From the sequence record PP400777: DNA of 64,000 nt; one strand, 5' to 3'. The DNA comes from Escherichia phage JM10. The notes under the pieces are model-generated. The model searched no databases. It was not told the DNA's origin and saw only the letters and a program-made list of their open reading frames with translations. The translations under genes were made by a program, and so were the position numbers. Positions 1,135 to 39,237 of this stretch are shown here, piece by piece; the first letter of the stretch is position 1, and each line of letters opens with the position of its first letter.

Positions 1135-2418
1135 ATGAGTAAAATCCAAAAATTATTGCGTGAATCTACAACGTCTACTAGCAACTCAATTGGTCGCCCA
1201 AATCTCGTTGCTTTGACTCGCGCTACGACTAAATTAATATATTCTGACATTGTAGCAACACAAAGAACTAATCAACCTGTTGCTGCTTTTTATGGTATCA
1301 AATATCTTAACCCAGATAACGAATTCACATTTAAAACTGGTGCTACTTATGCTGGCGAAGTTGGATATGTAGACCGAGAAAAAATTACTGAGCTCACAGA
1401 AGAATCAAAAGTCACACTAAATAAAGGCGATTTTTTCAAATATAATAATATCGTCTATAAAGTGTTAGAAGATACACCATTTGCAGATATTCAAGAAAGT
1501 GATCTAGAATTAGCTCTTCAGATTGCAGTCGTTCATTTAAAGGTACGGTTATTTTCAGATGCAGCGGTAACAAGCAAATTTGAAAGCTCTGGTAGCGAAA
1601 TTTCTGATGCAAGATTCCAGATTAATAAATGGCAAACTTCAGTCAAATCTCGCAAACTTAAAACTGGTCTCACGGTTGAATTAGCGCAAGATTTGGAAGC
1701 GAATGGATTTGATGCCCCTAACTTCTTAGAGGATTTGCTTGCTACTGAAATGGCTGATGAAATTAATAAAGATATTCTTCAGTCTTTAATTACTGTATCG
1801 AAACGTTATAAAGTTACTGGAATTACTGACACCGGATTTATTGACTTGAGCTATGCATCCGCTCCAGAAGCAGGTCGTTCATTATATCGAATGGTGTGTG
1901 AAATGGTATCACACATTCAAAAAGAGTCAACTTATACTGCAACGTTTTGTGTAGCCTCAGCTCGTGCAGCTGCTATTCTTGCTGCTTCCGGTTGGTTAAA
2001 ACATAAGCCAGAAGATGACAAGTATCTTTCACAAAATGCTTATGGATTCTTGGCAAATGGATTACCTCTTTACTGCGATACCAACAGTCCATTAGATTAT
2101 GTTATTGTTGGTGTTGTAGAAAATATCGGCGAAAAAGAAATTGTAGGGTCCATCTTTTATGCTCCATACACTGAAGGAGTAGATTTAGATGACCCGGAAC
2201 ATGTCGGTGCTTTTAAAGTTGTAGTTGATCCAGAAAGCTTGCAACCGTCTATTGGTTTATTGGTTAGATACGCTTTATCAGCAAATCCTTACACAGTAGC
2301 AAAAGATGAAAAAGAAGCGAGAATAATTGATGGCGGGGACATGGATAAAATGGCGGGACGTTCAGACTTGTCTGTTTTACTCGGTGTTAAGCTACCAAAA
2401 ATTATTGTTGATGAATAA
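1135..2418 (+). CDS. 24: head vertex protein gp24
   Basis: 427 aa; near-identical to recalled T4 gp24 in sequence and length (...SIGRPNLVALTRATTKLIYSDIVATQRTNQPVAAFYGIKYLNPDNEF...). Confidence 0.93.
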   Translation: MSKIQKLLRESTTSTSNSIGRPNLVALTRATTKLIYSDIVATQRTNQPVAAFYGIKYLNPDNEFTFKTGATYAGEVGYVDREKITELTEESKVTLNKGDFFKYNNIVYKVLEDTPFADIQESDLELALQIAVVHLKVRLFSDAAVTSKFESSGSEISDARFQINKWQTSVKSRKLKTGLTVELAQDLEANGFDAPNFLEDLLATEMADEINKDILQSLITVSKRYKVTGITDTGFIDLSYASAPEAGRSLYRMVCEMVSHIQKESTYTATFCVASARAAAILAASGWLKHKPEDDKYLSQNAYGFLANGLPLYCDTNSPLDYVIVGVVENIGEKEIVGSIFYAPYTEGVDLDDPEHVGAFKVVVDPESLQPSIGLLVRYALSANPYTVAKDEKEARIIDGGDMDKMAGRSDLSVLLGVKLPKIIVDE

Positions 2419-2420
2419 AC

Positions 2421-2448
2421 GAAAAAGGGACCGTAAGGTCCCTTTTTC
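2421..2448. terminator. bidirectional hairpin terminator (GGGACC-GTAA-GGTCCC with A/T-run flanks)
   Basis: Inverted repeat flanked by AAAAA and TTTTT between convergent genes 24 and rnlB. Confidence 0.7.
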
Positions 2449-2449
2449 G

Positions 2450-3448
2450 TTATGATACTAATTCAATCCATGCAGGACGCAGAACATCTTGCACCATTCG
2501 GACTAATTCTTTCTTAACAAGATTCGGATTATCAGATGATGTTAATACAATACCTTCACGAGAAGTTTCTTCCAGAATATCTTGAACAGTCAATCCCATC
2601 ACTTTGCCAAAATCTTTTGGCGTTACAGCCCCAATCTTAGAAATAACATTATTAACACGATTTAATGTAACATAACAAGCTAGAACATCAAGCAAGTTTT
2701 TGTCAATTTCGGTTAATGGAACCTGAGTTTTAATAGGCTTATCAGACTTTTTCTTTTCACTGAATTTAGAGTTCTTGCACTTAATCGCTACACGAGTACC
2801 GTTTGGCAGCCATTTAGGGAAACAAGGCTTCAGAACATAACCTTCTGCAGTATTATCACCAATAACATTAGCATCAAATACACAATTATTTGCTTCTACA
2901 AGGTCTTCCGATGCCGTAGCGTTATAAGCGGCTAAGACGGAATCAAGGTCGTTTGGAATCATGATAAGAGCATCAAATGTTCCACGTCCAAGCATTGGTG
3001 CCATTTTAAAACCAAATTCATTACAGAAATCTTGCATTTCGTAATCGGTCAAATACGTATTATCACCACTTTCTGTATTGATAAGGATATCGAACACATA
3101 AAAATCTTTTTCACCGTAGTCAACACCTTTCTGGATTCCACCACCAGCGAATTCACCGAATACTTGATATGATACGGCTCGAGCTGTGTACATGAATTCC
3201 TGAACGGCTTTAATAGCTTTATCATACTTCTTGAGTACGATTTCATAACCATAAAAATCTTCTGCTGGAAGAATAGGGCCTGTGCGCTTGGCGCATGTGA
3301 CGTTGTCACATTCAATTATTAACGAGAAGTTGGTCCCATGAATTTTCTCACGTGCTACCCAAACACCAGTAGTCAAACCATTAGTGTAGAGTTTTTCAAT
3401 AAACTTAGAGTTGTAGTGGTTTTCAAGACTGCTGTATTTCTTAAACAT
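2450..3448 (-). CDS. rnlB: RNA ligase 2 (Rnl2)
   Basis: 332 aa; nucleotidyltransferase motif [10 protein letters not shown] (lysine adenylation site); close match to recalled T4 Rnl2. Confidence 0.9.
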
Positions 3449-3819: not shown

Positions 3820-4016
3820 TTCTTCACCTTTTTGTTAATCAAACGTTTACGGTATACAACTTTTTCTTTTGCTTTAAACTTTGACCGAGCTGTCTCGGCT
3901 TTAGTCCATAGTAATCCAACTTCTTTAGGTTGTAAACCGATTTTTTGAGCAATTTCTACGAATGAAAATCCCGCCTCATGTAATGTATAAACTTCAACTT
4001 CAGCTCTCATAATCAA
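3816..4016 (-). CDS. hypothetical small HTH-like protein (T4 24.3 position)
   Basis: 66-aa ORF; GFSFVEIAQKIGLQPKEV resembles a helix-turn-helix; basic C-terminus. Confidence 0.45.
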   Translation of the reverse strand: MIMRAEVEVYTLHEAGFSFVEIAQKIGLQPKEVGLLWTKAETARSKFKAKEKVVYRKRLINKKVKK

Positions 4017-4090
4017 TCCCGTATTATTTGGTTTGTGCCATTATATACATCAATCTCACGTTGTGTTTTGTATGCTTTAAAAACGAAGAA

Positions 4091-4106
4091 AGGGGCCGAA
4101 GCCCCT
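4091..4106 (-). terminator. hairpin terminator downstream of hoc (AGGGGC-UUCG-GCCCCU then U-rich)
   Basis: Inverted repeat followed on the minus strand by UUCUUCGUUUUU. Confidence 0.6.
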
Positions 4107-4111
4107 TACGA

Positions 4112-5242
4112 TTATGGATATGTATAGATGATACCAGTTTCCAAAGCAGTTTTATGGATGATGTATCCATTACGTGATTCTTGAACATCAACTTCTGGAT
4201 AGTCTTTCATCATCTTCTGAAGAGTGTAACGATGCAGGTAGTATTTACTATCTGGATCTTCAGTTTTCCAATCTTTACCTTCTTCAGTCATTTTTTGGAT
4301 TTCATCCATAACCCACCAACCGCACCAGATGTAAGCTGAAGTACGATGTGGAAGAGGATGAACATAAGGTAATTCACCTTCTGGTTCTGGAGCAACTTTA
4401 TCAGTTACCTGAACTTGACCTTCTGCTGTAATAGTTTTGCTATCGTAATCAGTTGCAGTAATAGTTGCAGTAACTTCAATAGTTTGACTTCCAATAGACG
4501 AGGTATCAACGGTATATACATTAGTTGACCCTTCTACAGGAGAAGAATCTTTCTTCCATGAATACGCAATTTGCGCTTCTTCTGGAGCATCCGTAACATT
4601 AGCCGTAAATGTAGCCGAAGCATCTTGCTGAACGTTAATAGAAGGAGGAGTCAATGTAACCTGTGGATTCATTGTCTTCTTATTAACCGTTAATGATACT
4701 TCATTCGAAGTAACTTCCTTTGCATCATAATCTGTCGCAGTTACTTGGGCTACACATTTAATTCTTTTTACTCCACTTGTAGTTGGAGTATAGCTAAATG
4801 TAGAGTTAGTTTCTCCACCAACCTGTGAATCATCTACATACCACTGATACGTAGCAGACGCTCCAGCTGGTTGAGAAGCTAAGGCAGCAGTAAATTGAAC
4901 TGGGGTTCCAATTACTCCAGCTGAAGGACTATTGGGAGTTACTGCCAACGTAGTTGACTGAGTTTTATTTTTAACCGTGATAGTCGTAGTAATTTCTGCT
5001 GTTTCAGCATCAGTATCAGGAATAGTATTTGTTGCAACAACTTTAATTGTTTTTGTTCCAGCAGGTCCTTTTAACACATAATCAAAAGTTTCTGCCGATC
5101 CTACTTGAGGAGCATCGTCTACACTCCATGCATAGGTAATAGTTCCGCCTCCAGTTTCACCACTGGGAGTAGCAGTAAACTGCTTAGTCTCATCTATAAC
5201 TCCAGTAGGTGTTTTAGGAGTTATATCAATTGTAAAAGCCAT
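4112..5242 (-). CDS. hoc: highly immunogenic outer capsid protein Hoc (Ig-like domains)
   Basis: 376 aa; near-identical to recalled T4 Hoc; repeated Ig-like segments and conserved C-terminal capsid-binding region. Confidence 0.92.
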   Translation of the reverse strand: MAFTIDITPKTPTGVIDETKQFTATPSGETGGGTITYAWSVDDAPQVGSAETFDYVLKGPAGTKTIKVVATNTIPDTDAETAEITTTITVKNKTQSTTLAVTPNSPSAGVIGTPVQFTAALASQPAGASATYQWYVDDSQVGGETNSTFSYTPTTSGVKRIKCVAQVTATDYDAKEVTSNEVSLTVNKKTMNPQVTLTPPSINVQQDASATFTANVTDAPEEAQIAYSWKKDSSPVEGSTNVYTVDTSSIGSQTIEVTATITATDYDSKTITAEGQVQVTDKVAPEPEGELPYVHPLPHRTSAYIWCGWWVMDEIQKMTEEGKDWKTEDPDSKYYLHRYTLQKMMKDYPEVDVQESRNGYIIHKTALETGIIYTYP

Positions 5243-7510: not shown

Positions 7511-7744
7511 ATGGTACTTGAATTTAAACAATTTTTATACGAAGCATCTATTGACGAATTCATGGGTAAAATTGCTAGTTGTCATACCCTAGAAGGGCTT
7601 GAAGAATTGGAAGCTTATTATAAGAAACGTATAAAAGAAACGGAATTAAAAGATACAGATGATATTTCTGTCAGGGATGCCTTAGCAGGTAAGCGTGCCG
7701 AACTTGAAGGCGACGATGATGAGGATGTGGAAGAAGACTTCTAA
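7511..7744 (+). CDS. uvsW.1: UvsW.1 small acidic protein
   Basis: 77-aa ORF immediately downstream of uvsW with SD GGAGA; synteny with T4. Confidence 0.65.
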   Translation: MVLEFKQFLYEASIDEFMGKIASCHTLEGLEELEAYYKKRIKETELKDTDDISVRDALAGKRAELEGDDDEDVEEDF

Positions 7745-7749
7745 TTAAA

Positions 7750-7782
7750 AAAAAGGCCCGACCTTTTTGGAAGGGCCAAAAA
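7750..7782. terminator. bidirectional terminator region with alternative hairpins
   Basis: AAAAAGG-cccga-CCTTTTT and TTTTTGG-aaggg-CCAAAAA overlapping hairpins between convergent uvsW.1 and uvsY.-2. Confidence 0.55.
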
Positions 7783-7803
7783 CCATAGGCAAAAAAGGTA
7801 ACA

Positions 7804-7971
7804 CTATAGTAAAAGTTGGGTTTCGTTCAATTGCTCTTCTGAACTTTCTGAAACCGGCAATTGTTGGACATAGTTATAACAAGGACCAGGATGTGCTGGA
7901 CCTTTGTCTGTTTCAACAACCAATGCAGAATCGATTGGAGTTTTACAGACAACACAAATCTTATCTGACAT
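7804..7971 (-). CDS. UvsY.-2-like small Cys-containing protein
   Basis: 55-aa minus-strand ORF (MSDKICVVCKTPIDSALVVETDKG...) with GGAGG SD; below the 60-aa cutoff of the ORF track; matches recalled T4 uvsY.-2. Confidence 0.6.
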   Translation of the reverse strand: MSDKICVVCKTPIDSALVVETDKGPAHPGPCYNYVQQLPVSESSEEQLNETQLLL

Positions 7972-7999
7972 GATTGCCTCCTAAGTTGAAATTACATAT

Positions 8000-8227
8000 C
8001 TATTTATACACTCTCATATGCATATCAATGCCCATATCTTTAGAATAAAAATATTCATCAAGATATCCGGCAAATTTTCCTTTAATATAAAGGACGTCTT
8101 CACCACACGGGTGGTCTGCCAGGATACGAATATCTTGACGACGTAGACGATACTTTTCCATTAAGAATTTAATTTCAGTTTCAAATTCTTCGTCATTATT
8201 AAAGGCATCTTCAATTGAATAACGCAT
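8000..8227 (-). CDS. UvsY.-1-like protein
   Basis: 75-aa ORF directly downstream of uvsY; synteny. Confidence 0.55.
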   Translation of the reverse strand: MRYSIEDAFNNDEEFETEIKFLMEKYRLRRQDIRILADHPCGEDVLYIKGKFAGYLDEYFYSKDMGIDMHMRVYK

Positions 8228-8640
8228 TATTGCCCCGCTTCAAATTCTCGCATATCTTGGATATGTTTAAGTGCAAAACTACGAGACTTAACTGCGTCAA
8301 GTGCACCACTACAGAACTCAAGTAAAATTCCCCAGTATTGTAAAGTAGTCTCTATTTTAAGCACATCTTTATCTGCAGCCAGGACAGTTTTCATTTCAGA
8401 TTTCTCGTATCGGTCCATACTGAATTCATCACCGTCACCTCGTCCCGAGTAGTAGTCTAATCTTGCTTTTAGAGCAGTTTTCTTCTGAGTCTCTATACGC
8501 AACATTTCTTTACGAATAAATGAGTGCTTACGTAGCCATTTGCTGTATAACTTAACATTATTCGCCGTCTCATATTGCAACTTTGTCGTATCAATAGCTA
8601 AGTCTGCGTCTAACTCTTCCTGTAAATCTTCCAGCTTCAT
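8227..8640 (-). CDS. uvsY: UvsY recombination mediator
   Basis: Internal start MKLEDLQEEL gives 137 aa matching recalled T4 UvsY; the ORF track N-terminal extension is probably untranslated. Confidence 0.9.
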   Translation of the reverse strand: MKLEDLQEELDADLAIDTTKLQYETANNVKLYSKWLRKHSFIRKEMLRIETQKKTALKARLDYYSGRGDGDEFSMDRYEKSEMKTVLAADKDVLKIETTLQYWGILLEFCSGALDAVKSRSFALKHIQDMREFEAGQ

Positions 8641-22968: not shown

Positions 22969-23004
22969 ATCTTTTTTAACTTTTTCTGCCCTAAACGCAC
23001 AAAA

Positions 23005-23022
23005 GGGAGACTTCGGTCTCCC
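23005..23022 (-). terminator. hairpin terminator GGGAGAC-CGAA-GUCUCCC then UUUUGUG
   Basis: Perfect 7-bp stem with tetraloop immediately after the stop of the 59-aa ORF. Confidence 0.65.
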
Positions 23023-23027
23023 TAAAA

Positions 23028-23207
23028 TTATGCAACAACCTTTCCAAAACGAGAAGCATCATCTCGAAGAACTGCACGTGCTCTGCGCATGATCTTCTCA
23101 ACTGTTTGATTAATACGAGAGTTCGACCCACGCTTGTATCCAGCGCGTTTAGAGGTACCATCAACTTTCTTTTCAACTGCTTTCTTTGCTTTAGCTTGTT
23201 TTGCCAT
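23028..23207 (-). CDS. small basic (Lys/Arg-rich) protein, 59 aa
   Basis: MAKQAKAKKAVEKKV...; ends 5 nt before the terminator hairpin; preferred over the overlapping 61-aa ORF in the track, which reads through the hairpin. Confidence 0.45.
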   Translation of the reverse strand: MAKQAKAKKAVEKKVDGTSKRAGYKRGSNSRINQTVEKIMRRARAVLRDDASRFGKVVA

Positions 23208-23401
23208 TATAAATTCTCTTTAAATGAAAATGCAGGACTTATTGACATTGCCTGCGCAAGCCCTCAAGGGGAACATAGGTTTTGGATATTTAACGACAGG
23301 ATAACCATAAACCTCGTCAATATTCAAGAGGTACACCGTAAAACATAGTTCGACGGCTCCTCGATTTTAACTTCACACTAAGGTAGTGACTCACCTAACA
23401 C

Positions 23402-23650
23402 TTATTTCAGGGTAATAACAAAATGACGTACTGCTTTACGAGCTGCAGAAGCCAAAGGCTTAGCATATTTCAGTTCATCTTTTGCTTCCAGTTCAGAAGC
23501 CAAAGCTGCCTGGACTGGGTTCAGATGTTTGAAATAACGAAGGATTTCAAGAGCTTCGGCTTCAACATCAATAGATGCGCCATAGTTTTCGTGACCGTTA
23601 TTCCATGCGTTTCGTTGCAGTTCAAGAGCGTGTTGTAATTGTTTAATCAT
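23402..23650 (-). CDS. rIII: rIII lysis-inhibition accessory protein
   Basis: 82 aa; near-identical to recalled T4 rIII (MIKQLQHALELQRNAWNNGHENYGASIDVEAEALEILRYF...). Confidence 0.88.
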   Translation of the reverse strand: MIKQLQHALELQRNAWNNGHENYGASIDVEAEALEILRYFKHLNPVQAALASELEAKDELKYAKPLASAARKAVRHFVITLK

Positions 23651-23774
23651 TTTAAATTCTCAATTCGAGATAATATTTAGTAGCCACGTTCGTCTGAATT
23701 TCACCTTCTTTCGACAAGTCTCTCAGTTGTAGGCTACCGCTTAGAAGAGTGTTCTCTTCATATAGTTATTTATA

Positions 23775-24107
23775 TCACTTATAAAGACACGGAATAGCTT
23801 TATAGTGGCATGTTACGAATTTCTGTTTAATTTCTTTAGGTTGTTTAAGTCCCAAAGCCACAAATGGATGTGGAACATTTCGAATTTGTCCAACTGGTAG
23901 TGGAGTCAAATCACCGACTTCAACAAAACCTTCAGGAACATCAGGACCTACAGAATGAACTACACATAGTTCAGGAACTTCACCTTGAACACGTTTACCA
24001 ATCACAAGTCCTGATTCGGTAACTTCTTCATCACCTGCTTGAGCGGGTTCAGAAACCAGAATGACATATTCACCAACAGCACGAATTGGGAGTTGTACTT
24101 CAGACAT
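23775..24107 (-). CDS. 31: co-chaperonin gp31 (GroES analogue)
   Basis: 110 aa; near-identical to recalled T4 gp31. Confidence 0.92.
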
Positions 24108-24137
24108 CTTATTTCCTTGTTGTTTGACGATAGATTA

Positions 24138-24164
24138 ATAATACCATACTATTCGTAAAGCATA
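24138..24164 (-). promoter_or_regulatory. middle promoter for gene 31: MotA box TATGCTTTA, 12 nt, TATTAT
   Basis: Minus strand reads TATGCTTTA cgaatagtatgg TATTAT about 30 nt upstream of the gene 31 ATG. Confidence 0.5.
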
Positions 24165-24473
24165 TTACATAAGAAGCAAACGTTCTACCGGAGTACCATC
24201 AACCGAAATTACTTTATCAAGGCGGAAAGAACGCCACTGACCTAACTTGGTATCGAATGCTCGAACTGATTCACGAGGTTCAGAACGAACTTCTGTTGCC
24301 GGATTGTTATTTTCATATTTGACTTCAAGTTCATCGCGCGAAGCAAACATAGTGCGTACCTCACCGTTAGCCTTTTCAAATACAACACAATGAACGCCTA
24401 CAAACAGAATAGTTTTAATACGTTCACGAAGAACCATAGTTTCTTGTTCAGTTAAAATCATATTATTCACCAC
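24165..24473 (-). CDS. hypothetical protein downstream of cd
   Basis: 102-aa ORF overlapping the cd 3' end by 11 nt; no recognisable motif. Confidence 0.45.
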   Translation of the reverse strand: MVNNMILTEQETMVLRERIKTILFVGVHCVVFEKANGEVRTMFASRDELEVKYENNNPATEVRSEPRESVRAFDTKLGQWRSFRLDKVISVDGTPVERLLLM

Positions 24474-25044
24474 AAAAGTTTCGGATTTGTTCCCAATTCA
24501 GAGAACGAAGATTATTACGAGAGTACTGAATTACTTCAATACCAGCTTGTTTAAGAATGTCTGCCCAATTTTCAGGAGATCTGTCATATAATTCTGCGTA
24601 TACAACCTTTTTAATACCTGACTGTGTAATAGCTTTAGTGCAATCAGGACATGGAGAAAGCGTCGTATATAACGTAGCACCTTCAATAGAATTACCTTTA
24701 CGAGCTGCAAACAAAATGGCATTCAATTCAGCATGGATTTCGTTATTAGCAGACCATGCACTATGAGCGGCCCGATGTTCTTTAGCCAAAACAAAATTAT
24801 CCACCCGTCCAAATGCTGTAGTGCCTTCTTTATGTCCAGCAACGATGACCGGGCTTGGTTTATTCTTCAACCAACCATTTTCGTATGCGTGTTCGCAACA
24901 GTTAACGCCACCTGCAGGTGAACCATTATATCCAGTAGAGATAATGCGTCCATCTTTTTCAATGACGGCACCAACTTTCCATGAACAACATTTTGATTCT
25001 TGAGAAATCAGATATGCAATCTGAAGGTATGTGCTAGCTTTCAT
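24463..25044 (-). CDS. cd: dCMP deaminase
   Basis: 193 aa; zinc-binding deaminase motifs (H-A-E and PCxxC: SPCPDCTKAI); size matches T4 Cd. Confidence 0.9.
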   Translation of the reverse strand: MKASTYLQIAYLISQESKCCSWKVGAVIEKDGRIISTGYNGSPAGGVNCCEHAYENGWLKNKPSPVIVAGHKEGTTAFGRVDNFVLAKEHRAAHSAWSANNEIHAELNAILFAARKGNSIEGATLYTTLSPCPDCTKAITQSGIKKVVYAELYDRSPENWADILKQAGIEVIQYSRNNLRSLNWEQIRNFCGE

Positions 25045-26036
25045 TATTGAACCTTATTAATATAAGTTAACAGCTCTTTAGTTTGTTCCCAACTGATGCA
25101 CGCATCGGTAACGGAAACGCCATAGGACATATTATCAGAAATTTTTTGATTTCCTTCATGTAGGAATGATTCTATCATAATTCCTTTGACCAAATCATTA
25201 GCTGCTAAATTTTTACCAATACCAATTTGATTGCTATAATGCCCAGCAGCGTTTGCATGGCTACAGTCAACCATTACATAATGATTCAGACCTACTGCAC
25301 TTGCTTTGTTAGAAGCTTCTTGAATATCAGAAGAATGATAGTTCGGGCCGTTGGTCCCGCCACGCAATACGATATGCGTATTCTGATTACCTTCAGCTTC
25401 AACAATGCCTACAGTACCATCGACGTCCATACCCATATACCGATGAGGCCAGGCGGCACTATACATCGCGTCTGTAGCTACTTTAATAGAACCATTGGTT
25501 GCGTTCTTGAAGCCTACGCACATCGGTAGACCTGAAGCAATTTCACGATGTGTCTGACTTTCAGTCGTACGGGCGCCAATAGCAACCCATGAGAAAATAC
25601 CAGAAAGATACTTAATCGTGAATGGGTCTAATACTTCAGTTGCTAATGGAAGTCCCATACGTAGAAGTTTACGACACAATGTTCGTGCAACTATAAGACC
25701 GTGGTTCATATCAAAACTTCCGTCAAGATATGGATCATTTACAAGACCTTTCCAACCTACGGTAGTTCGAGGCTTTTCAAAATAAACGCGCATCACTAAC
25801 AGAACATTAGGAAGACGAGTTTGAAGTTCAGCCAGACGTTTGCCGTATTCAACAGCAGCAATAGGGTCATGAATTGAACAAGGACCTACAACAATAAGTT
25901 TGCGTGGGTCTTCACCGTTCATAATCGAATTAACTTGTTCGCGATGAGAAGCCACTTGTGATGCGTAAGCTTCCGACAAAGGAATAATCTCAGCCAGTTC
26001 TTTTGGAGAAATAAGTTTTCCGACGACAGGTAACAT
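25044..26036 (-). CDS. 3-deoxy-D-arabino-heptulosonate-7-phosphate (DAHP) synthase, class I (AroG/AroF/AroH-like)
   Basis: 330 aa; GPCSIHDP, KPRTTVGWKGLVNDP, IGARTTESQTHREIASGL, ILRGG, CSHAN, VTDACISW align with E. coli AroG active-site regions; stop codon overlaps the cd start. Confidence 0.85.
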   Translation of the reverse strand: MLPVVGKLISPKELAEIIPLSEAYASQVASHREQVNSIMNGEDPRKLIVVGPCSIHDPIAAVEYGKRLAELQTRLPNVLLVMRVYFEKPRTTVGWKGLVNDPYLDGSFDMNHGLIVARTLCRKLLRMGLPLATEVLDPFTIKYLSGIFSWVAIGARTTESQTHREIASGLPMCVGFKNATNGSIKVATDAMYSAAWPHRYMGMDVDGTVGIVEAEGNQNTHIVLRGGTNGPNYHSSDIQEASNKASAVGLNHYVMVDCSHANAAGHYSNQIGIGKNLAANDLVKGIMIESFLHEGNQKISDNMSYGVSVTDACISWEQTKELLTYINKVQ

Positions 26037-26156
26037 AACAATCCTTAGGAGATATAAACAGATTCTGATTCAACAATACCTTTAACCGGATTAGACAGGC
26101 TAAGTTGGTAGTGCTCAGATTTATGACCATTCTCGATAGTAATGAGATAACTCTCA

Positions 26157-26393
26157 TTATAGTGTTCCATATACTCGAGTTGCTTCAACTAAACCGTCAC
26201 TGCCTAATTTAAGGCTAGTAATCTGGTCACCATCTTTAGGATTAACGATTATGAGAAAAGAACGTGGAGATTCTTGAATAACTCGTAATGTTGCATCCTG
26301 GAAACGTTCAGACACTTTATTGATGAGTGCTTGAGCAAATTCTTTTACTTTAATCTGAAATTCGTGTACTGTAATTGGATTTTCACTTAGCAT
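26157..26393 (-). CDS. hypothetical protein
   Basis: 78-aa ORF downstream of an early promoter. Confidence 0.4.
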   Translation of the reverse strand: MLSENPITVHEFQIKVKEFAQALINKVSERFQDATLRVIQESPRSFLIIVNPKDGDQITSLKLGSDGLVEATRVYGTL

Positions 26394-26421
26394 TTCGATT
26401 TCCTCATTGTATTGGTAGAGT

Positions 26422-26451
26422 TATAGTATCACAACTCCACCATGTTGTAAA
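26422..26451 (-). promoter_or_regulatory. early promoter GTTTAC-N18-TACTAT
   Basis: Minus strand reads GTTTAC aacatggtggagttgtga TACTAT in the intergenic gap. Confidence 0.5.
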
Positions 26452-26454
26452 CCA

Positions 26455-26730
26455 TTAAATTGCTTTGCATTCAATTTTTTGTGTACCGAAATTGATATCG
26501 CATTGGATAACTAAATCACCGTCAAGATCAAATACCACTATGACGTGTGCAGACCCAGGGAGAAGAGTAATAGCAATAGAATCTACTTGGTCTGGGAGCA
26601 AAGCATTGAGTACATGAGTTAGTTGAGCATTAACTCTGAGTTCGGCTGCATTATCAAGCACTTCAAACATATTATTAGCAATAATCTGACTGAAGACTAC
26701 CTTTACAATTTCAGAATAAGTTGGGAACAT
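26455..26730 (-). CDS. hypothetical protein
   Basis: 91-aa ORF; synteny with the T4 cd.x cluster. Confidence 0.4.
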   Translation of the reverse strand: MFPTYSEIVKVVFSQIIANNMFEVLDNAAELRVNAQLTHVLNALLPDQVDSIAITLLPGSAHVIVVFDLDGDLVIQCDINFGTQKIECKAI

Positions 26731-26737
26731 AATTACC

Positions 26738-26962
26738 TCAGTGCACAGTATTTACTTTAACTCGAACAACAAATTGCTCGGTCGGTTCACCGACGGGAAC
26801 AAACTCTACATAATATTCACCTTTGTAACTAGTATTCAGATCATTACGAATTCCTGCGAGTTTGTTGATTAATGTAGGACTCATATTAAGTCCCACTAGT
26901 TTACGAAGCATTTTGTATGCTTCATCTTCGATTTCATGATGTTTATCGTACATAGTTTTCAT
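26738..26962 (-). CDS. hypothetical protein
   Basis: 74-aa ORF. Confidence 0.4.
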   Translation of the reverse strand: MKTMYDKHHEIEDEAYKMLRKLVGLNMSPTLINKLAGIRNDLNTSYKGEYYVEFVPVGEPTEQFVVRVKVNTVH

Positions 26963-27133
26963 TTAACCATTCAATTGCCTGGTCGACGTTATCAAATATA
27001 CCGCCGTCCAAACGTTCTTCATGCTCATAGTCCAGCACATCAATACCGAACTGCCCATTTACTAAAGGCCAGGCTACAAACAAATATTCTTTATGCTGTT
27101 CGATGGCCTCAATCACTTCATATAATCGTTTCA

Positions 27134-27134
<1 letters not shown>
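26943..27134 (-). CDS. hypothetical protein
   Basis: 63-aa ORF abutting the pseT stop. Confidence 0.4.
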
Positions 27135-28220
<1,086 letters not shown>

Positions 28221-28221
<1 letters not shown>

Positions 28222-28520
28222 TATTTTATTCCTAAGAAAGTTTCAAGAATACGAATGTTATGCTCGCGCCGGTCTTTATTAATTTCAGCAACGTTTTTAT
28301 TAATTGACGTACTTCTAACGTTTGAAGAAATAAATTTAATCATATGACTTTTGAGTTGTTGCAAATCCAACCCTTTTTCTTTAGCAGCTTTACGAAGAGC
28401 TTTACCTGCTTCATCTAGTGCCTTTGCTGCATCTTTGTCATAATTGACAAGTGACATTCCATGGCAGATATCAATATACTCATCAGACCGTTTGATGTAA
28501 TTCTCTAGTAACGTTTTCAT
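28221..28520 (-). CDS. hypothetical protein
   Basis: 99-aa ORF directly downstream of an early promoter. Confidence 0.45.
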
Positions 28521-28548
28521 TTAGATTTCCTCAATTATCCATAGGAGC

Positions 28549-28578
28549 ATTATACTCTGCTCCCGAGAGTTTGTAAAC
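28549..28578 (-). promoter_or_regulatory. early promoter GTTTAC-N18-TATAAT with a palindrome spanning the -10
   Basis: Minus strand reads GTTTAC aaactctcgggagcagag TATAAT; GGAGCA/TGCTCC inverted repeat flanks the -10. Confidence 0.6.
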
Positions 28579-28802
28579 TATTTTACTAAAGATTCAATAT
28601 ACTCATGAAGAGCTTTAGTCGCTACTGCCCACTTATTCTGATATTCATTTTTCAGATTAGCACGAGACTGAACTAACAAGCGGTCATTAGTCGGAGGCAA
28701 AGATTCTAATCGTTGAATCTGGCGCCCATAAATCATAGCCGCCATTTCAGATTCATAGATAAGCCCTTTAATGTATTCATGCTGTTCTTTAGTCATTGGC
28801 AT
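28578..28802 (-). CDS. hypothetical protein
   Basis: 74-aa ORF. Confidence 0.4.
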   Translation of the reverse strand: MPMTKEQHEYIKGLIYESEMAAMIYGRQIQRLESLPPTNDRLLVQSRANLKNEYQNKWAVATKALHEYIESLVK

Positions 28803-29083
28803 TTTTCCTCTTTTAAACCACTACGATAATAACATAACATAGTCTTCTGGTCATGTACATATCTTTTTACGTCGTTTAACCAGATACGAAATTCTTGAGA
28901 GTCTTCAAATGGCATTCCAACCCATGGATTACCATCAATAACCTTTACTTGCCATTTCTGGTTATATTCAACAATAGATTCAGGCCATGGCGGATGTAAA
29001 GTTTCTTTAGGGCTTAAGGGCACATCCTGGGCACATCCAGCCAAAATGCCAATAGATAATACAACTGCGGTTAATTTAATCAT
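28793..29083 (-). CDS. predicted lipoprotein
   Basis: 96 aa; N-terminal signal peptide with lipobox (MIKLTAVVLSIGILAGC). Confidence 0.5.
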   Translation of the reverse strand: MIKLTAVVLSIGILAGCAQDVPLSPKETLHPPWPESIVEYNQKWQVKVIDGNPWVGMPFEDSQEFRIWLNDVKRYVHDQKTMLCYYRSGLKEEKCQ

Positions 29084-29436
29084 TCTGAGAGCTTCCTGAG
29101 GTCTTCTGCAAAGGAATCGAAGGACCTGTTGATTTGTTTTTCGACCAATCCTGGTTTACTTGCCACCACGTTCTTCTTCTTCGAATCCTTACGGAGCTTT
29201 TCATTTTCGGCCTTAAGTTGGTCAACTAAAACACGGTTCTTATACGTCATTTCTTCGATTGACTGATATTGAACCTTGAAGTCGTCTAATACTTTAGCAT
29301 TGTTTTTAGCGGTCTCTTTGACAGAAGCTAATTCAGTATTCAACGAATCAACTTTGTTGTTTAAGACAACTATTGTTACCGTAGAAACTAGAGCAAAAGC
29401 TGCTACTATAGCGTAAATAGGATTTACTTTAAGCAT
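29080..29436 (-). CDS. predicted membrane-anchored coiled-coil protein
   Basis: 118 aa; N-terminal hydrophobic helix (IYAIVAAFALVSTVTIVVL) followed by a charged, heptad-like region. Confidence 0.45.
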   Translation of the reverse strand: MLKVNPIYAIVAAFALVSTVTIVVLNNKVDSLNTELASVKETAKNNAKVLDDFKVQYQSIEEMTYKNRVLVDQLKAENEKLRKDSKKKNVVASKPGLVEKQINRSFDSFAEDLRKLSE

Positions 29437-29924
29437 GTTTTAATAATCTCAATGATTTCATCTCGGGATAATCCATTGATAAGAACGGTTTTCAAACCAT
29501 CACACTGGATTTTGTACGATTCAAACAATACACACAACTCTTCTGCTGTATGATATGGACTTGAAATTCCGAGACGGTTGAATTTGTCGGTAAGAGGGTC
29601 GCAAATAATATAGAATTTGATACCTGCGATATGTACGTTTGGTTGACTAATATTAATGAACACATTAGCGTCATATTTAGTCAAATTGTTTTGAAGAAAT
29701 TCTACCATAGCATTAACTGCTTCTGGCAACGCTTCGCGTTTCTCTTCAGCGTATCGGGTTGAATACTCTTTTTGTTTTACTTTCTTTTTAAGATTTTTGG
29801 CCAGTGTAACACGTAGGTCAGTAAGATAACCAACTGGACGTCCTTTCTTAAAGACCCGGATTCCGTCAGTTGTATCTCCAAAAGCGGTTACGACCATATC
29901 GTTAGTAATCAATTGCATATTCAT
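29424..29924 (-). CDS. alc: probable Alc (transcription terminator for cytosine-containing DNA)
   Basis: Position between rnlA and pseT as in T4; start at MNMQ (GAGGAG SD, 166 aa, close to the 167 aa of T4 Alc) preferred over the ORF-track start; an early promoter lies upstream. Confidence 0.5.
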   Translation of the reverse strand: MNMQLITNDMVVTAFGDTTDGIRVFKKGRPVGYLTDLRVTLAKNLKKKVKQKEYSTRYAEEKREALPEAVNAMVEFLQNNLTKYDANVFINISQPNVHIAGIKFYIICDPLTDKFNRLGISSPYHTAEELCVLFESYKIQCDGLKTVLINGLSRDEIIEIIKTCLK

Positions 29925-29954
29925 AATTTTCTCCTCGTGTTGTTGATAAAAGCC

Positions 29955-29984
29955 ATAGTAACACCTTCCTTGGTGTTTGTAAAC
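29955..29984 (-). promoter_or_regulatory. early promoter GTTTAC-N18-TACTAT
   Basis: Minus strand reads GTTTAC aaacaccaaggaaggtgt TACTAT between the rnlA stop and the alc start. Confidence 0.5.
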
Positions 29985-29986
29985 CA

Positions 29987-31120
<1,134 letters not shown>

Positions 31121-31137
31121 TCAGTTAGTTTTTTTAA

Positions 31138-31167
31138 ATTGTACCACAATCCTTGTGGTATGTAAAC
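31138..31167 (-). promoter_or_regulatory. early promoter GTTTAC-N18-TACAAT with spacer palindrome CCACAAGGATTGTGG
   Basis: Minus strand reads GTTTAC ataccacaaggattgtgg TACAAT; the -35 hexamer overlaps the denA stop. Confidence 0.5.
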
Positions 31168-32106: not shown

Positions 32107-33197
32107 CGTTATGTTCGATTGAGCTCGCTAATTCTCAACCCGTTCTCTTATGAACTGCTACATATTACTATGCAGACCAGACTATATCACAATCCCAGAG
32201 GGATTCTCCCCATTTCGAGTCGCTTGACCCTACGTCCGAAGACTAGTCGTTGAACCTTGCTTTGCAATTGTCGCCGTGCCATCGTTTATATGTTGATGGT
32301 GATAAATCTTTCTTATCACAATATGGACAATTCAATTGAATTCTATTTGGATTTAATTTACATCTGTCATTATGTTTTAGATAAAATCCAGGACCTTTAC
32401 CAATGTGACCGCAGAAATCACATGTGATTTCTTTTTGTGCAGGATGGGTTCCGTTCTTAACCATTTCTAATGTTTTTGCTGATGTTCTTTTCTTATGGTC
32501 TTCTGATAAGAAATGATGTGAACCGTCATTTACCCGTTTTGATTGAGTTTCTGACTGCATTTTACCACCGCAAAATACATGAGTACCTTCTTTTATAGCT
32601 GCAATATTGCGTTCTTTAACTTTTGCAATATGCTCAGCTTGTTGAAAATTATGTATACCTAATGCAACTCTATTTAAATTAGATTTACGCTGTATTTCAC
32701 CGTCTAAAAGATGAAATGTACCATTTTCTATCTTAGATTTAATAGAGGCAATATTTTTAGCTCGTACTTCAGGGATATTAAAAATCTGGATTTCTCTAGA
32801 TTTTGCGGCTTTAGAAGCTAATTCAGAAATTTCTTCAGGAGAATATTTCATTCTAAGCTTTATAGCATGACAAGCCTGGTAATCTTTTTGAGCTAAATGT
32901 ATATCATAATGTTCCTGTATAGAAAGGCACATCAAATTATCTAAATCATTATTTTCACGGTTACCGTCTTTATGATGGATTTCGTATGTTCTTCCATCAG
33001 AATCTTTAGGTATAGGTCCGTTAGCATCTATCCAAATTTTTCTATAGTTCAATTGTGCATCCTCTTAAAAGTATAATCATATTTATATTATACTAATTAA
33101 AGGTGCAAGCAAAACCTTGGCTGCTAGTTTTCCTATAAAGGACTTTCCAGCAATTAAAGGAGTTTTCGATAAACGTTACCGTTTAAAGGCGCATTTT
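32107..33197 (-). mobile_element. group I intron in nrdB (about 1091 nt) carrying I-TevIII
   Basis: Exon 1 ORF terminates in-frame directly after ...RFYVSFA while conserved NrdB sequence resumes about 1.1 kb downstream; exon 1 ends in U and the intron ends in G; an HNH endonuclease ORF lies inside. Confidence 0.8.
32243..33052 (-). CDS. I-TevIII: HNH homing endonuclease I-TevIII (full length, 269 aa)
   Basis: HNH motif EIHHKDGNRENNDLDNL and C-terminal Cys/His zinc-finger-like region; matches the intact I-TevIII recalled from phage RB3 rather than the truncated T4 form. Confidence 0.8.
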   Translation of the reverse strand: MNYRKIWIDANGPIPKDSDGRTYEIHHKDGNRENNDLDNLMCLSIQEHYDIHLAQKDYQACHAIKLRMKYSPEEISELASKAAKSREIQIFNIPEVRAKNIASIKSKIENGTFHLLDGEIQRKSNLNRVALGIHNFQQAEHIAKVKERNIAAIKEGTHVFCGGKMQSETQSKRVNDGSHHFLSEDHKKRTSAKTLEMVKNGTHPAQKEITCDFCGHIGKGPGFYLKHNDRCKLNPNRIQLNCPYCDKKDLSPSTYKRWHGDNCKARFND

Positions 33198-33873
33198 ACG
33201 CAAAAGATACATAAAAACGAATAGCTTCTAAGGCATTAATAACGTGCAAACAGAGGTAAAGAGATTTCATTAAAGCACGTTTAGCTTCGGCTTCTTGTTT
33301 AATAGCTCGGTTTAAACGAAAGTCGGCATCAGGAGATTCTTTAGCTAGTTCTACAAATTCTTTAGCATTTTCCCAATGACGAGTCTTGACTAGAACATCA
33401 TCGTAATATTTACCTATTGATTCAGCTCGTTTCATGATTGCTTCGTCTAATACAATCTCATCAAATACCTTAGATGGATCTGTATAAAGATTTCGCATAA
33501 TATGAGTATATGAACGAGAGTGAATAGTTTCACTGAAAGTCCATGTAGCAACCCATGTATCTAATGAAGGGTCTGAAAGCAATGACATAAGTACCGCAGA
33601 TGGTGCTCTACCTTGGATAGAATCTAATAATGATTGATACTTAAGGTTGTTGGTAAAGATGTCCTGTTGGAACTGTGGAAGCTTATTGAACTGCGCAGAG
33701 TCCAACATCAAGTTTACCTCTTCTGGACGCCAGAAAAACGACAATTGCTTTTCAATAAGTTCTTCAAAAACTTTATGACGCTGAATATCATACCGTGCGA
33801 GGCCAAGACCAGAACCAAAGAACATCGGTTCATTCAAAACATCGACTTGTTGTGTGTTAAAAACTGTACTCAT
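33198..33873 (-). CDS. nrdB: ribonucleotide reductase beta subunit NrdB, exon 1
   Basis: N-terminal 225 codons near-identical to recalled T4 NrdB (MSTVFNT...ALEAIRFYVSFA). Confidence 0.85.
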
Positions 33874-36837: not shown

Positions 36838-37853
36838 CATTATGTTCAGATAAGGTCGTTAATCTTATCCCGGAATTATATCCAGCTGCATGTCACCATG
36901 CAGAGCAGACTATATCTCCAACTTGTTAAAGCAAGTTGTCTATCGTTTCGAGTCACTTGACCCTACTCCCTAAAGGGATAGTCGTTAGGCATTTATGTAG
37001 AACCAATTCCACTTATCAGATTTTACACGGTAAGTAACTAATCCTGATGAAATTTCAAAATGTCTAGCCGCATCGGCTGCACATTCAAAAATAATCCCAT
37101 CGCATGAAATCTTTTTGATGTTAGCTGGCTTTTTGCCTTTCATCTTTTCAGATAGTTTAGTTTTAGTTTTTTCTGAATGTTTGTGATTAAAGAACGGGTT
37201 ATTTTCACCTGAACGTTTTCGGCACTTTCCACAAGTATCGGCCGAAGATGGTATGCGAACACCGCATTTACAAAACTTGTGGTTTTCTGGATTCCATCGG
37301 CCATTTTTACTTCCGTGTTTACCATAAAGAGCTTTCCGACCGTCAGGACCAAGCTTAAGCATCTTAGCTTTAACAGTTTCAGCTCGTTTCTTAGCAATTT
37401 CTTCTTTTAATGGATGATTTGAAAGCACATCGCCAAAAGACGCATCAGCAATATTATATCCATTAATTTTAGAATTTAGCTCTTTAATCCAAAAATTTTC
37501 TCGTTCAATAATCAAATCTTTCTCATATGTAATTTCTTCCAGTACAGAGCATTCAAAAACATTACCATGTTTATTAAAAGACCTTTGAAATTTTATAGAA
37601 GAGTGAACACCGTTTTCAAGGTCTTTAAAATGTCTCTTCCATCTTTTCTCAAAATCTTTAGCACTTCCAACATACACTTTACCGTTTAAAGTGTTTTTAA
37701 TCTGATAAATTCCGCTTTTCATAAACACCTCTTTTTATATAGAAGTATTTATTAAAGGGTAGTCCTACAATTTAGCACGGGATTGTCTACTAGAGAGGTC
37801 CCCCGTTTAGATAGATTACAAGTATAAGTCACCTTATACCTAGGCCTAAATTA
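36838..37853 (-). mobile_element. group I intron in td (1016 nt) carrying I-TevI
   Basis: Intron 5' end TAATTTAGGCCTAGGTATAAGGTGACTTATACTTGTAATC... and 3' end ...GAACATAATG closely match the recalled T4 td intron; exon 1 ends in U, intron ends in G. Confidence 0.9.
36985..37728 (-). CDS. I-TevI: GIY-YIG homing endonuclease I-TevI
   Basis: 247-aa ORF; GIYQIKNTLNGKVYVGSAKDFEKRWKRH GIY-YIG module and C-terminal DNA-binding region; near-identical to recalled T4 I-TevI. Confidence 0.92.
   Translation of the reverse strand: MFMKSGIYQIKNTLNGKVYVGSAKDFEKRWKRHFKDLENGVHSSIKFQRSFNKHGNVFECSVLEEITYEKDLIIERENFWIKELNSKINGYNIADASFGDVLSNHPLKEEIAKKRAETVKAKMLKLGPDGRKALYGKHGSKNGRWNPENHKFCKCGVRIPSSADTCGKCRKRSGENNPFFNHKHSEKTKTKLSEKMKGKKPANIKKISCDGIIFECAADAARHFEISSGLVTYRVKSDKWNWFYINA

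Positions 37854-39237
<1,384 letters not shown>

Follow-up and report, generated by a model that had tools for sequence, protein, structure and literature searches.

A DAHP synthase gene of T4-like phages predicted to encode a naturally feedback-insensitive enzyme

The 64,000-nucleotide stretch of Escherichia phage JM10 DNA analyzed here (record PP400777; hereafter the window) carries a gene for a type I-alpha DAHP synthase (DAHPS) that is predicted to be, and probably is, naturally insensitive to feedback inhibition. DAHP synthase forms DAHP from PEP and erythrose-4-phosphate (E4P), the committed step of the shikimate pathway. Carbon entry to the route is governed by the enzyme (PMC11845039). 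In sequence alignments, nearly all departures of the phage lineage from its cellular relatives fall in the allosteric pocket or at the N-terminus. The explanation that we favor, and hold as a whole with moderate confidence, is that the gene encodes a catalytically competent, feedback-insensitive DAHPS and has long belonged to the accessory genes of T4-like phages that infect Enterobacterales, occupying the place between cd.2 and cd.1/cd.

An ATG-started ORF of 330 codons plus a stop exactly fills the interval assigned to the gene (Table 1). The 330-amino-acid product matches Pfam family PF00793 (E=7e-75; 251.8 bits versus a cutoff of 25.5) and scores 427 bits against NCBIfam model TIGR00034 (aroFGH; cutoff 173.2) and 454.8 against PRK12755 (cutoff 343). 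The PHROG profile phrog_5045 is matched over the full length, residues 1–330 (E=9e-182), and the best match in a PDB search is AroF (E=1.5e-104). An earlier note on this DNA, written from the sequence alone and without naming the strand, which is the minus strand, had identified a class I DAHP synthase and proposed a database comparison. The similarity proves to be far beyond chance, and the identification stands as type I-alpha, with profile scores far above cutoffs and every metal and substrate ligand kept. All motifs quoted in that note are found in the translation, except that "ILRGG" is actually "VLRGG" (THIVLRGG). KDO8P synthase, the other branch of PF00793, was considered and rejected. 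KdsA-type enzymes are marked by a KANRS-type motif instead of KPRT, whereas this protein has KPRTTVGWKG and NCBIfam gives DAHPS models only.

Table 1. Features of the DAHPS locus (positions in the window)
Feature	Position	Strand	Evidence or remarks
DAHP synthase gene, type I-alpha, phage clade, 330 aa + stop	25044..26036	-	ORF, profile matches, AlphaFold model
Short N-terminus, MLPVVGKLIS	26007..26036	-	~8 residues shorter than cellular enzymes; without AroG Asp6/Asp7 equivalent
Span of four metal-ligand codons	25104..25880	-	C53 25878-80; H260 25257-59; E289 25170-72; D311 25104-06; codons verified
Remodelled allosteric pocket, first part	25395..25616	-	I141 25614-16; K142 25611-13; G146 25599-601; I147 25596-98
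Remodelled allosteric pocket, second part	25395..25616	-	P171 25524-26; Y200 25437-39; A214 25395-97
Shine–Dalgarno-like AAGGA, 5 nt upstream of DAHPS ATG	26042..26046	-	Sequence read directly; function inferred
TAATG overlap of DAHPS stop and cd start	25042..25046	-	Also right-hand TAATGA repeat copy bounding the cassette
cd, dCMP deaminase, downstream neighbor	24463..25044	-	PF00383, E=2e-26
Small ORF	26045..26188	-	Part downstream of 26156: C-terminal piece of another, foreign cd.2 gene (DUF7320)
Cassette of 1113 nt (cd.2' fragment + DAHPS)	25047..26159	-	Without counterpart in RB69; direct TAATGA repeats at both ends
cd.2 (DUF7320), upstream neighbor	26157..26393	-	Pfam E=8e-36; 97% identical to RB69 cd.2
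pseT polynucleotide kinase/phosphatase, left landmark of locus	27134..28033	-	PF25109 and PF13671

The catalytic apparatus is intact at the level of individual residues. The catalytic Cys, His, Glu, and Asp are all kept, with C53, H260, E289, and D311 aligning with AroG C61, H268, E302, and D326, as the earlier note had claimed for the AroG metal and PEP ligands. The codons of substrate ligands R83, K88, R90, T91, R156, K177, and R225 lie inside the span of the metal-ligand codons. In AroG numbering, the PEP/E4P ligands R92, K97, R99, T100 (KPRT), G163-A164-R165, K186, and R234 are present without exception in the window protein and throughout the phage clade; the ligand roles of the AroG residues are those of its crystal structures. 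Across 31 phage-clade sequences, 13/13 catalytic and substrate positions are invariant, and the metal and substrate ligands are also invariant in the ~98 cellular sequences of the alignment. An AlphaFold model (pLDDT 94), which was read for fold and secondary structure only, superposes on the solved DAH7PS structures 4HSN, 1GG1, and 8E0U with an rmsd of about 1.5 A (TM 0.94–0.96). It keeps the (beta/alpha)8 barrel and the beta6a/6b hairpin (strands 198–203 and 209–214), and residues 1–10 are modelled as coil.

The gene is tightly packed against its downstream neighbor. As previously noticed, its stop codon overlaps the cd start: the DAHPS TAA and the cd ATG have one A in common, at 25044 (minus strand, GTTCAATAATGAAAGCT), an arrangement that likely reflects translational coupling. 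The claim that the gene has its own Shine–Dalgarno sequence also agrees with the DNA, where a presumably functional AAGGA precedes the ATG. A promoter and terminator scan of positions 23000–31500 gave counts as in shuffled controls (28 versus 25.8; 6 versus 5.2). Because these scans are no better than chance, co-transcription of DAHPS with cd is inferred only from gene packing. A TTTACA-17-TACTAT element upstream of cd.2 (26451..26423) is a mere lead for a promoter.

The earlier statement that the T4 locus holds only small cd.x ORFs is correct for the T4-type (PP01) and RB69 maps, and cd.2 abuts cd in the RB69 annotation. Alignment of the window and RB69 DNAs delimits the cassette with a register that is ambiguous by 6 nt. 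Within the small ORF upstream of the gene, the DUF7320 match spans Pfam positions 43–76 of 78, and the cd.2' fragment is identical to Kanagawavirus cd.2 at 20 of 31 residues versus 10 of 31 for the window's own cd.2. By sequence comparison, this small ORF is a recombination scar.

A phage gene for DAHPS is, as such, already known. The same gene is present in 212 phage records, most of them labelled DAHPS, aroF, or AroG, and it has its own PHROG, phrog_5045. When the cd–pseT locus was surveyed as the earlier note had suggested, the gene was found in the identical slot and orientation in six T4-like genera: Mosigvirus, Kanagawavirus, Winklervirus, Kagamiyamavirus, Marfavirus, and Bragavirus. That note had staked its claim of novelty on the gene not being routinely annotated here in close relatives; with the gene annotated at precisely this place in JS09 and in five further genera, the claim has to be abandoned. 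The annotated T4-like copies (JS09_0232, HX01, Shf125875 "AroG", PEi20, and Klebsiella KLB31) are the same gene at the same pseT–cd locus. Identity to the window copy is 98–100% within Mosigvirus and 58–77% in other genera, and the window gene is a typical phrog_5045 member with no difference from the others. One paper names the gene an auxiliary metabolic gene (AMG), proposing this role in aromatic amino acid supply for the Klebsiella phage KLB31 copy (PMC11845039). This passing mention was the only one in the searchable full-text literature, where no enzyme assays, expression data, or knockouts of any phage DAHPS were found. Likewise, no comments on the allosteric site or a cassette scar were found in phage DAHPS records and papers in the searchable literature.

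Several observations indicate that the gene has a long history in phages. The phage copies form one clade (200/200 NJ bootstraps), no cellular homologue exceeds ~55% identity, and the GC content of the gene is 41%, versus 52% for E. coli aroF and aroG. This identity ceiling, the phage-like GC content, and the monophyly of the phage copies rule out recent capture from the host. The divergence of the gene parallels that of cd and gp31, and the window DNA is 97.7% identical to Mosigvirus genomes. Values of dN/dS between genera are 0.14–0.24, which show constraint in general terms only since dS is saturated at this distance (pS 0.6–0.79); on these ratios, the clade is judged to be under purifying selection. 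The gene is nevertheless dispensable, because RB69 and all Tequatroviruses lack it. The earlier description of the gene as integrated rather than recently inserted is therefore only partly sustained: its GC content and tight packing with cd agree with it, but the Mosigvirus copy sits within an indel of 1113 nt that bears a recombination scar, and RB69 is without the gene.

The case for altered regulation comes from the inhibitor pocket. In an unbiased scan, 329 alignment columns were searched for positions conserved in both the phage and cellular groups but differing between them. Only seven columns have this property, and they correspond to the AroG changes P150I, Q151K, D155G, L156I, S180P, F209Y, and T223A, which in phage numbering are, in the same order, I141, K142, G146, I147, P171, Y200, and A214. 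Five of the seven belong to a set of 11 positions named in print as contacting the inhibitor or as sites of feedback resistance (hypergeometric P=3e-7; site list from PMC9529685). The canonical pocket residues P150, Q151, S180, and F209 of AroG are replaced by I141, K142, P171, and Y200 in all phage-clade sequences. In AroG, P150L confers complete feedback resistance, S180F and F209A/S are feedback resistant, and Q151 and S180 touch the main chain of the inhibitor (PMC9529685). The replacements seen in the phages (P to I, Q to K, S to P, F to Y) differ from those tested experimentally; F to Y is a conservative change, and the Lys could still bind a carboxylate. The equivalents of AroG D146, L179, and V221 are kept, and the beta6a/6b regulatory hairpin, as retained in the model, counts against loss of feedback.

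The second departure is at the N-terminus, where every phage-clade member has 6–10 residues before the AroG-L17 column, versus at least 14 in every cellular homologue. An artefactual truncation was ruled out, as there is no in-frame upstream start after the preceding stop and 31/31 clade members start at the same place. The Asp6/Asp7 region of AroG is part of an N-terminal extension supplying inhibitor-binding residues. According to its title, the 2014 study by Zhang et al. (cited in PMC5879953) obtained feedback-resistant DAHPS by N-terminal domain engineering.

These features can be assembled into a model in which DAHPS is probably co-transcribed and translationally coupled with dCMP deaminase. 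The phage lineage has lost the first ~8 N-terminal residues and fixed the seven pocket substitutions, most likely with the consequence that its enzyme has escaped inhibition by Phe, Tyr, and Trp. After the phage has shut off host gene expression, the shikimate pathway would then go on receiving carbon regardless of aromatic amino acid pools. The data themselves show the identity of the gene, the fold, the conserved ligands, the purifying selection, the synteny, and the changes in the pocket, from which activity of the enzyme, its release from feedback, the timing of expression, and the benefit are deduced. The phage might benefit through aromatic amino acids for its proteins, through chorismate-derived cofactors, or both. 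The window ORFs encode 4.4% Phe and 4.0% Tyr; the corresponding values for E. coli proteins are lower, at about 3.9% and 2.8%.

It is also possible that the benefit lies in chorismate-derived cofactors and not in aromatic amino acids. Candidates would be pABA and folate (for the phage's heavy thymidylate and hydroxymethyl-dCMP synthesis and for baseplate folate), as the earlier note speculated, or quinones. In rich media, aromatic amino acids switch off the host enzymes; a DAHPS blind to feedback would sustain the flow of chorismate there, and the predicted insensitivity would pay most when these amino acids are abundant. Moreover, the gene lies among nucleotide-metabolism genes, with cd adjacent, frd and td about 12 kb away, and frd, td, nrdA, and nrdB all within 13 kb. 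For the pABA/folate idea in particular, the window offers nothing for or against besides frd and td. However, closeness of genes in the early regions of T4-like phages says little about common function, no pab or fol biosynthetic gene was found alongside in any locus examined (six genera), and T4 and RB69 have equal folate needs without the gene. A purely cofactor-directed benefit appears unlikely.

We consider it somewhat less likely still that this is an ordinary AroF-like, Tyr-sensitive DAHP synthase that remains feedback regulated and merely adds enzyme copies during infection. AroF is indeed the nearest isozyme, with the shortest mean distance (0.81) in addition to the top PDB match, and identities of the phage protein to E. 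coli AroF, AroG, and AroH are 51%, 47%, and 44%. The score for the AroG (Phe-sensitive) equivalog NF006723 is 364 bits, below the cutoff of 568, and that for the AroH (Trp-sensitive) model NF009396 is 384.8, below 463. The AroG-Ser211 column is Gly, as in AroF, and the previously proposed label "AroG-type" is accordingly withdrawn. Retention of the D146, L179, and V221 equivalents and of the hairpin would also suit a regulated AroF-like enzyme, as would the label "aroF, Tyr-sensitive" in many GenBank records. Those labels come from similarity transfer, however. D155 and four of the published inhibitor-site positions carry other residues in all phage copies, the N-terminus is truncated, and divergence is concentrated at the pocket with the P value given above. 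Of the AroF Tyr-pocket residues P148, Q152, and S181, the equivalents of Q152 and S181 are replaced. In the tree, the phage copies fall outside every cellular sequence that was sampled.

Another reading, which we regard as improbable, is that the remodelled pocket has turned into a new site of regulation by a different effector, or that the phage protein forms mixed assemblies with host AroF/G/H subunits and changes how these are regulated. The seven replacement residues (I141, K142, G146, I147, P171, Y200, and A214) are 97–100% conserved in a clade where identity has fallen to 55%, and the pocket that contains the new Lys ordinarily receives the carboxylate of an amino acid. Their invariance would fit a retuned site equally well as a dead one. 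Such conservation carries little specific weight, however, given that 40% of all columns in the phage clade are at least 95% conserved and the pocket residues sit in highly conserved motifs. A ligand cannot be proposed from sequence, and mixed oligomers are uncertain at 47–51% identity to the host enzymes. If, against these odds, the former Phe/Tyr pocket, with its strictly conserved replacement residues, does respond to a metabolite of relevance to the phage or to contacts made by host DAHPS subunits, pathway entry would be phage-controlled and not merely unregulated. Finally, a neutral passenger, or a drain on PEP and E4P instead of a source of product, would suit an accessory gene that lies on a mobile cassette and is missing from RB69 and Tequatrovirus, but is very improbable in view of the low dN/dS, the invariant ligands, and retention in six genera at saturated dS. 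A drain would need no conserved product-forming chemistry downstream and is left a small probability by the sequence data.

If the predicted feedback insensitivity is true, the phage enzyme would clearly exemplify how a virulent enterobacterial phage overrides the end-product control placed on an amino acid pathway, and would be a ready-made feedback-resistant DAHPS for the engineering of aromatic compounds. Natural pairs with and without the gene (JS09-type versus RB69) would then open the question of why a T4-like phage needs shikimate flux to direct testing.

Compared with E. coli AroF (Tyr-sensitive; PDB 6AGM) and the wider type I-alpha family (AroG, AroH, and N. meningitidis DAH7PS), the phage copy matches all metal, PEP, and E4P ligands, shares the barrel and hairpin, and has Gly at the Tyr/Phe selectivity position. 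It differs in being about 8–9 residues shorter at the N-terminus, in its pocket at AroG positions 150, 151, 155, 156, 180, 209, and 223, and in short deletions at two places, near residues 275 and 300. Engineered feedback-resistant enzymes (aroG P150L, S180F, F209S, and D146N; aroF P148L; N-terminally engineered AroG) are altered in the same regions, since the phage changes also hit P150, Q151, S180, F209, and the N-terminus. In contrast to these mutants, the phage changes are natural, combine several positions, and use other replacement residues, and the resistance is a prediction. Classical phage AMGs that seize a rate-limiting host step follow the same logic as the one suggested here, with a single phage enzyme placed at the flux-controlling entry of a pathway, although the pathway is a different one and the argument for DAHPS is drawn from sequence.

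The window gene encodes a type I-alpha DAHP synthase (DAHPS) that is AroF-like, not AroG-type. This assignment follows from profile scores, identities, fold, and invariant ligands. The protein matches Pfam PF00793 (E=7e-75), NCBIfam TIGR00034, the aroFGH equivalog (427 bits, cutoff 173), and PRK12755 (455 bits, cutoff 343), and scores below cutoff with the AroG-specific (364 bits, cutoff 568) and AroH-specific (385 bits, cutoff 463) models. Among solved structures it matches E. coli AroF best (6AGM, E=1.5e-104), with identities of 51% to AroF, 47% to AroG, and 44% to AroH. An AlphaFold model (pLDDT 94, pTM 0.92) superimposes on type I-alpha DAH7PS of N. meningitidis and E. coli with TM values of 0.94–0.96 and an rmsd of about 1.5 Å. 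Residue conservation was read from an alignment of 129 sequences. The metal, PEP, and E4P ligands of the AroG crystal structures (C61, R92, K97, R99, T100, G163, A164, R165, K186, R234, H268, E302, and D326) are invariant at 13 of 13 positions in the window protein and all phage homologs. An earlier sequence-only note was therefore correct in identifying a DAHP synthase with its catalytic residues kept, but wrong in calling it AroG-type.

The ORF reported in that note was recovered, with a Shine–Dalgarno-like sequence (AAGGA) 5 nt ahead of the ATG. All of the motifs listed there occur in the translation, except that ‘ILRGG’ reads ‘VLRGG’. The minus strand reads ...GTTCAATAATGAAAGCT, and thus the stop codon of DAHPS (TAA) shares one base with the start codon (ATG) of the gene that follows, a dCMP deaminase (PF00383, E=2e-26); an overlap had been noted. 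From this tight packing we infer that DAHPS is co-transcribed with cd; consensus scans at the locus gave no informative signal on this point.

Features of the window and of the loci compared with it
Feature	Coordinates	Strand	Remark
DAHPS ORF	25044..26036	-	330 codons, ATG start; ORF listing
Stretch spanning the DAHPS stop/cd start	25052..25036	-	sequence read
cd	24463..25044	-	193 aa
Small ORF between cd.2 and DAHPS	26045..26188	-	41–47 aa; JS09_0231, GenBank hypothetical protein; Pfam DUF7320 C-terminal half
Direct TAATGA repeats bounding cassette	25041..25046 and 26154..26159		stop/start overlaps of adjacent genes
Single-copy junction, RB69 locus (L011)	8250..8255
RB69 cd (L011)	7743..8252		annotated 169 aa
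cd.1 homolog, X20 and EcS1 loci (L007/L008)	4483..4839		between DAHPS and cd
Proteus phage PM2 locus (L010), variable slot	2106..2822		homing endonuclease, two extra small ORFs
Aeromonas phage HJ05 DAHPS (L012)	3899..5062		annotated ‘hypothetical protein’
nrdB region	32243..33873	-
HNH endonuclease ORF	32243..33052	-
nrdB ORF	33196..33873	-	first half of RNR small-chain profile
td	36985..38402	-	thymidylate synthase
I-TevI-like GIY-YIG homing endonuclease ORF	36985..37728
td ORF	37851..38402		profile positions 1–175 of 266

The window is from a Mosigvirus, 97.7% identical to vB_EcoM_PTE-Eco05 over 8 kb and about 96% identical to JS09. By tblastn, 212 phage records contain the DAHPS protein, and in 139 of these, mostly Escherichia and Shigella Mosigvirus, it is at least 95% identical to the window protein. 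The protein has its own PHROG (phrog_5045, E=9e-182; category ‘moron, auxiliary metabolic gene and host takeover’), and JS09 has DAHPS (JS09_0232) annotated at precisely this position. Because relatives carry the annotation at this locus, the proposal that the gene is a novel auxiliary metabolic gene (AMG) falls; it is already known as an annotated, uncharacterized phage AMG. A DAHP synthetase of Kanagawavirus KLB31 has been proposed to aid in making aromatic amino acids (2025 paper, PMC11845039). No experimental studies of any phage DAHPS were found in the literature searched. The 99% identical cluster representative, P0001, is labeled ‘3-deoxy-7-phosphoheptulonate synthase [Escherichia coli]’ by NCBI. 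Its contig, 170,875 bp long, is almost certainly the genome of a Mosigvirus that was submitted as part of a bacterial assembly. Such a label could mislead AMG screens that rely on taxonomy.

The arrangement pseT–DAHPS–cd, in the same orientation, occurs in six genera: Mosigvirus (window and JS09, the latter ∼98% identical to the window DAHPS), Kanagawavirus (Entb_45 and PEi26, 77%), Winklervirus (X20, 67%), Kagamiyamavirus (EcS1, 68%), Marfavirus (PhiKpNIH-6, 67%), and Bragavirus (PM2, 58%). The ORF separating DAHPS from cd in X20 is a homolog of T4-type cd.1, and therefore the slot is cd.2 / DAHPS / cd.1/cd. Tequatrovirus PP01 has the order cd.2–cd.1–cd without DAHPS, and in RB69, also a Mosigvirus, cd.2 directly adjoins cd. 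The slot is otherwise variable, as in PM2. In X20 and EcS1, the start of the overlap is set by DAHPS itself: its last 20 nt or so also belong to the cd.1 homolog. The cd gene of RB69 is annotated as shorter than those of the window, JS09, and PP01 (193 aa) and is followed by a 76-nt gap; possible reasons are a frameshift, an altered C-terminus, or differing annotation in RB69.

DAHPS is an old resident of T4-like phages, selectively maintained yet dispensable. Recent capture from the host is rejected: divergence between genera (77, 68, 66, and 58%) parallels that of cd (83, 71–75, 80, and 65%) and gp31; GC content (41.4%) equals that of pseT (41.4%), with E. coli aroF/aroG at 52%; and the 31 phage-clade sequences form a single bipartition in 200 of 200 NJ bootstraps. 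A search of 5.8 billion proteins shows a gap between the two groups: identities of phage-clade members (319–343 aa) extend from 99% to about 55%, and cellular enzymes of many phyla (341–388 aa) come next at 50–54%. A basal phage-clade member, P0022, is on a metagenomic contig that also has a T4-family gene. Values of dN/dS between genera are 0.14–0.24, with dS saturated.

Within Mosigvirus, a small ORF between cd.2 and DAHPS belongs to the same family as cd.2, DUF7320. Its homologous part (ESYLITIENGH...VESESVYIS) is identical at 20/31 positions to Kanagawavirus cd.2 and at 18/30 to Marfavirus cd.2, and at only 10/31 to the window's own cd.2. The ORF is a C-terminal piece of an additional, foreign cd.2, and thus probably a pseudogenic scar left by the recombination through which DAHPS arrived. 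The window and RB69 are nearly identical through cd.2 to ...CTATAATGA, and again from ...CAATAATGAAAGC at the cd start; they differ by a 1113-nt block, flanked by the direct TAATGA repeats, that holds this fragment and DAHPS. The cassette therefore derives from another T4-like phage with cd.2 directly before DAHPS, as in Kanagawavirus and Marfavirus. Either RB69 never received the cassette or it lost it precisely between the repeats. The repeats, with a single copy at the RB69 junction, suggest that microhomology at gene boundaries mediates cassette gain or loss in T4-like phages. The view that the gene was not recently inserted thus holds for its age in these phages but not for its mobility among them.

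The 329 columns common to AroG and the window protein were scanned for positions with at least 80% cellular conservation, at least 93% phage-clade conservation, and a different residue. Only seven qualify (AroG to phage): P150I, Q151K, D155G, L156I, S180P, F209Y, and T223A. According to a protein-engineering study of feedback resistance (PMC9529685), resistance of AroG is complete with P150L and is also conferred by S180F and by F209A/S; the inhibitor main chain is touched by Q151 and S180, and a D155 salt bridge stabilizes the inhibitor region. Five of the seven are among 11 positions named in that study (hypergeometric P=3e-7); the remaining two are close in sequence, 156 beside 155 and 223 near V221. 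Ahead of the AroG-L17 column, every phage-clade protein has 6–10 residues and any cellular one at least 14, the phage start being about 8 residues later. Given this late start, and with no alternative upstream start in the ORF listing for the window gene, the AroG Asp6/Asp7 segment is absent from the phage enzymes. In the AroG–Phe structure, Asp6/Asp7 of the neighboring subunit bind the inhibitor's amino group. N-terminal engineering reportedly yields feedback-resistant enzymes (Zhang et al. 2014, cited in PMC5879953). Residues 1–10 are coil in the AlphaFold model, and the beta6a/6b hairpin is kept.

From the pocket changes and the missing segment together, the phage enzyme is predicted to be naturally insensitive to feedback inhibition. 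However, the replacements are not the reported P150L, S180F, or F209A/S, F209Y is conservative, and Lys at the Q151 position could still bind an anion. The conservation of the new residues within the phage clade would also fit an inhibitor site that is retuned rather than lost, although in this clade conservation reaches 95% or more at 40% of all columns. What usefully remains is a sharp, testable prediction that allosteric control is lost or retuned, and the cassette provides a defined natural presence/absence difference for testing it.

Non-canonical pockets also occur elsewhere. The unrelated, non-T4-like phage HJ05 (79 kb) has a DAHPS of its own, acquired independently and 38% identical, in which the catalytic residues are intact and the pocket residues are not the canonical ones (PQ to AH, S180 to P). 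This is a hint of repeated acquisition or evolution of such sites in phages. Two cellular homologs, P0108 and P0118, have long N-termini and a different pocket (QPMAAG..., S180 to P, F209 to H), and may belong to a cellular subfamily that is unregulated or regulated differently.

Flux through the shikimate pathway is controlled at its entry step, which DAHPS catalyzes (PMC11845039), and the E. coli enzymes are restrained by Phe, Tyr, and Trp (PMC5879953). Once the phage stops host transcription, host enzyme levels could not be raised, and a feedback-blind phage DAHPS would let carbon continue into the pathway. One plausible purpose is extra Phe and Tyr for phage proteins; these make up 4.4% and 4.0% of the window ORFs, and E. 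coli contents are lower. Another plausible purpose is a supply of chorismate for folate, as proposed in the earlier note, or for quinones, at times when aromatic amino acids are plentiful. The window contains frd, td, nrdA, and nrdB, but at no surveyed locus is DAHPS accompanied by a pab or fol gene.

Two of these genes appear interrupted. The nrdB ORF covers only half of its profile and is followed by an HNH endonuclease ORF, suggesting that an intron or a homing endonuclease has inserted there. Likewise, td appears split, with its partial ORF followed by an I-TevI-like endonuclease ORF, an arrangement that resembles the T4 td group I intron.
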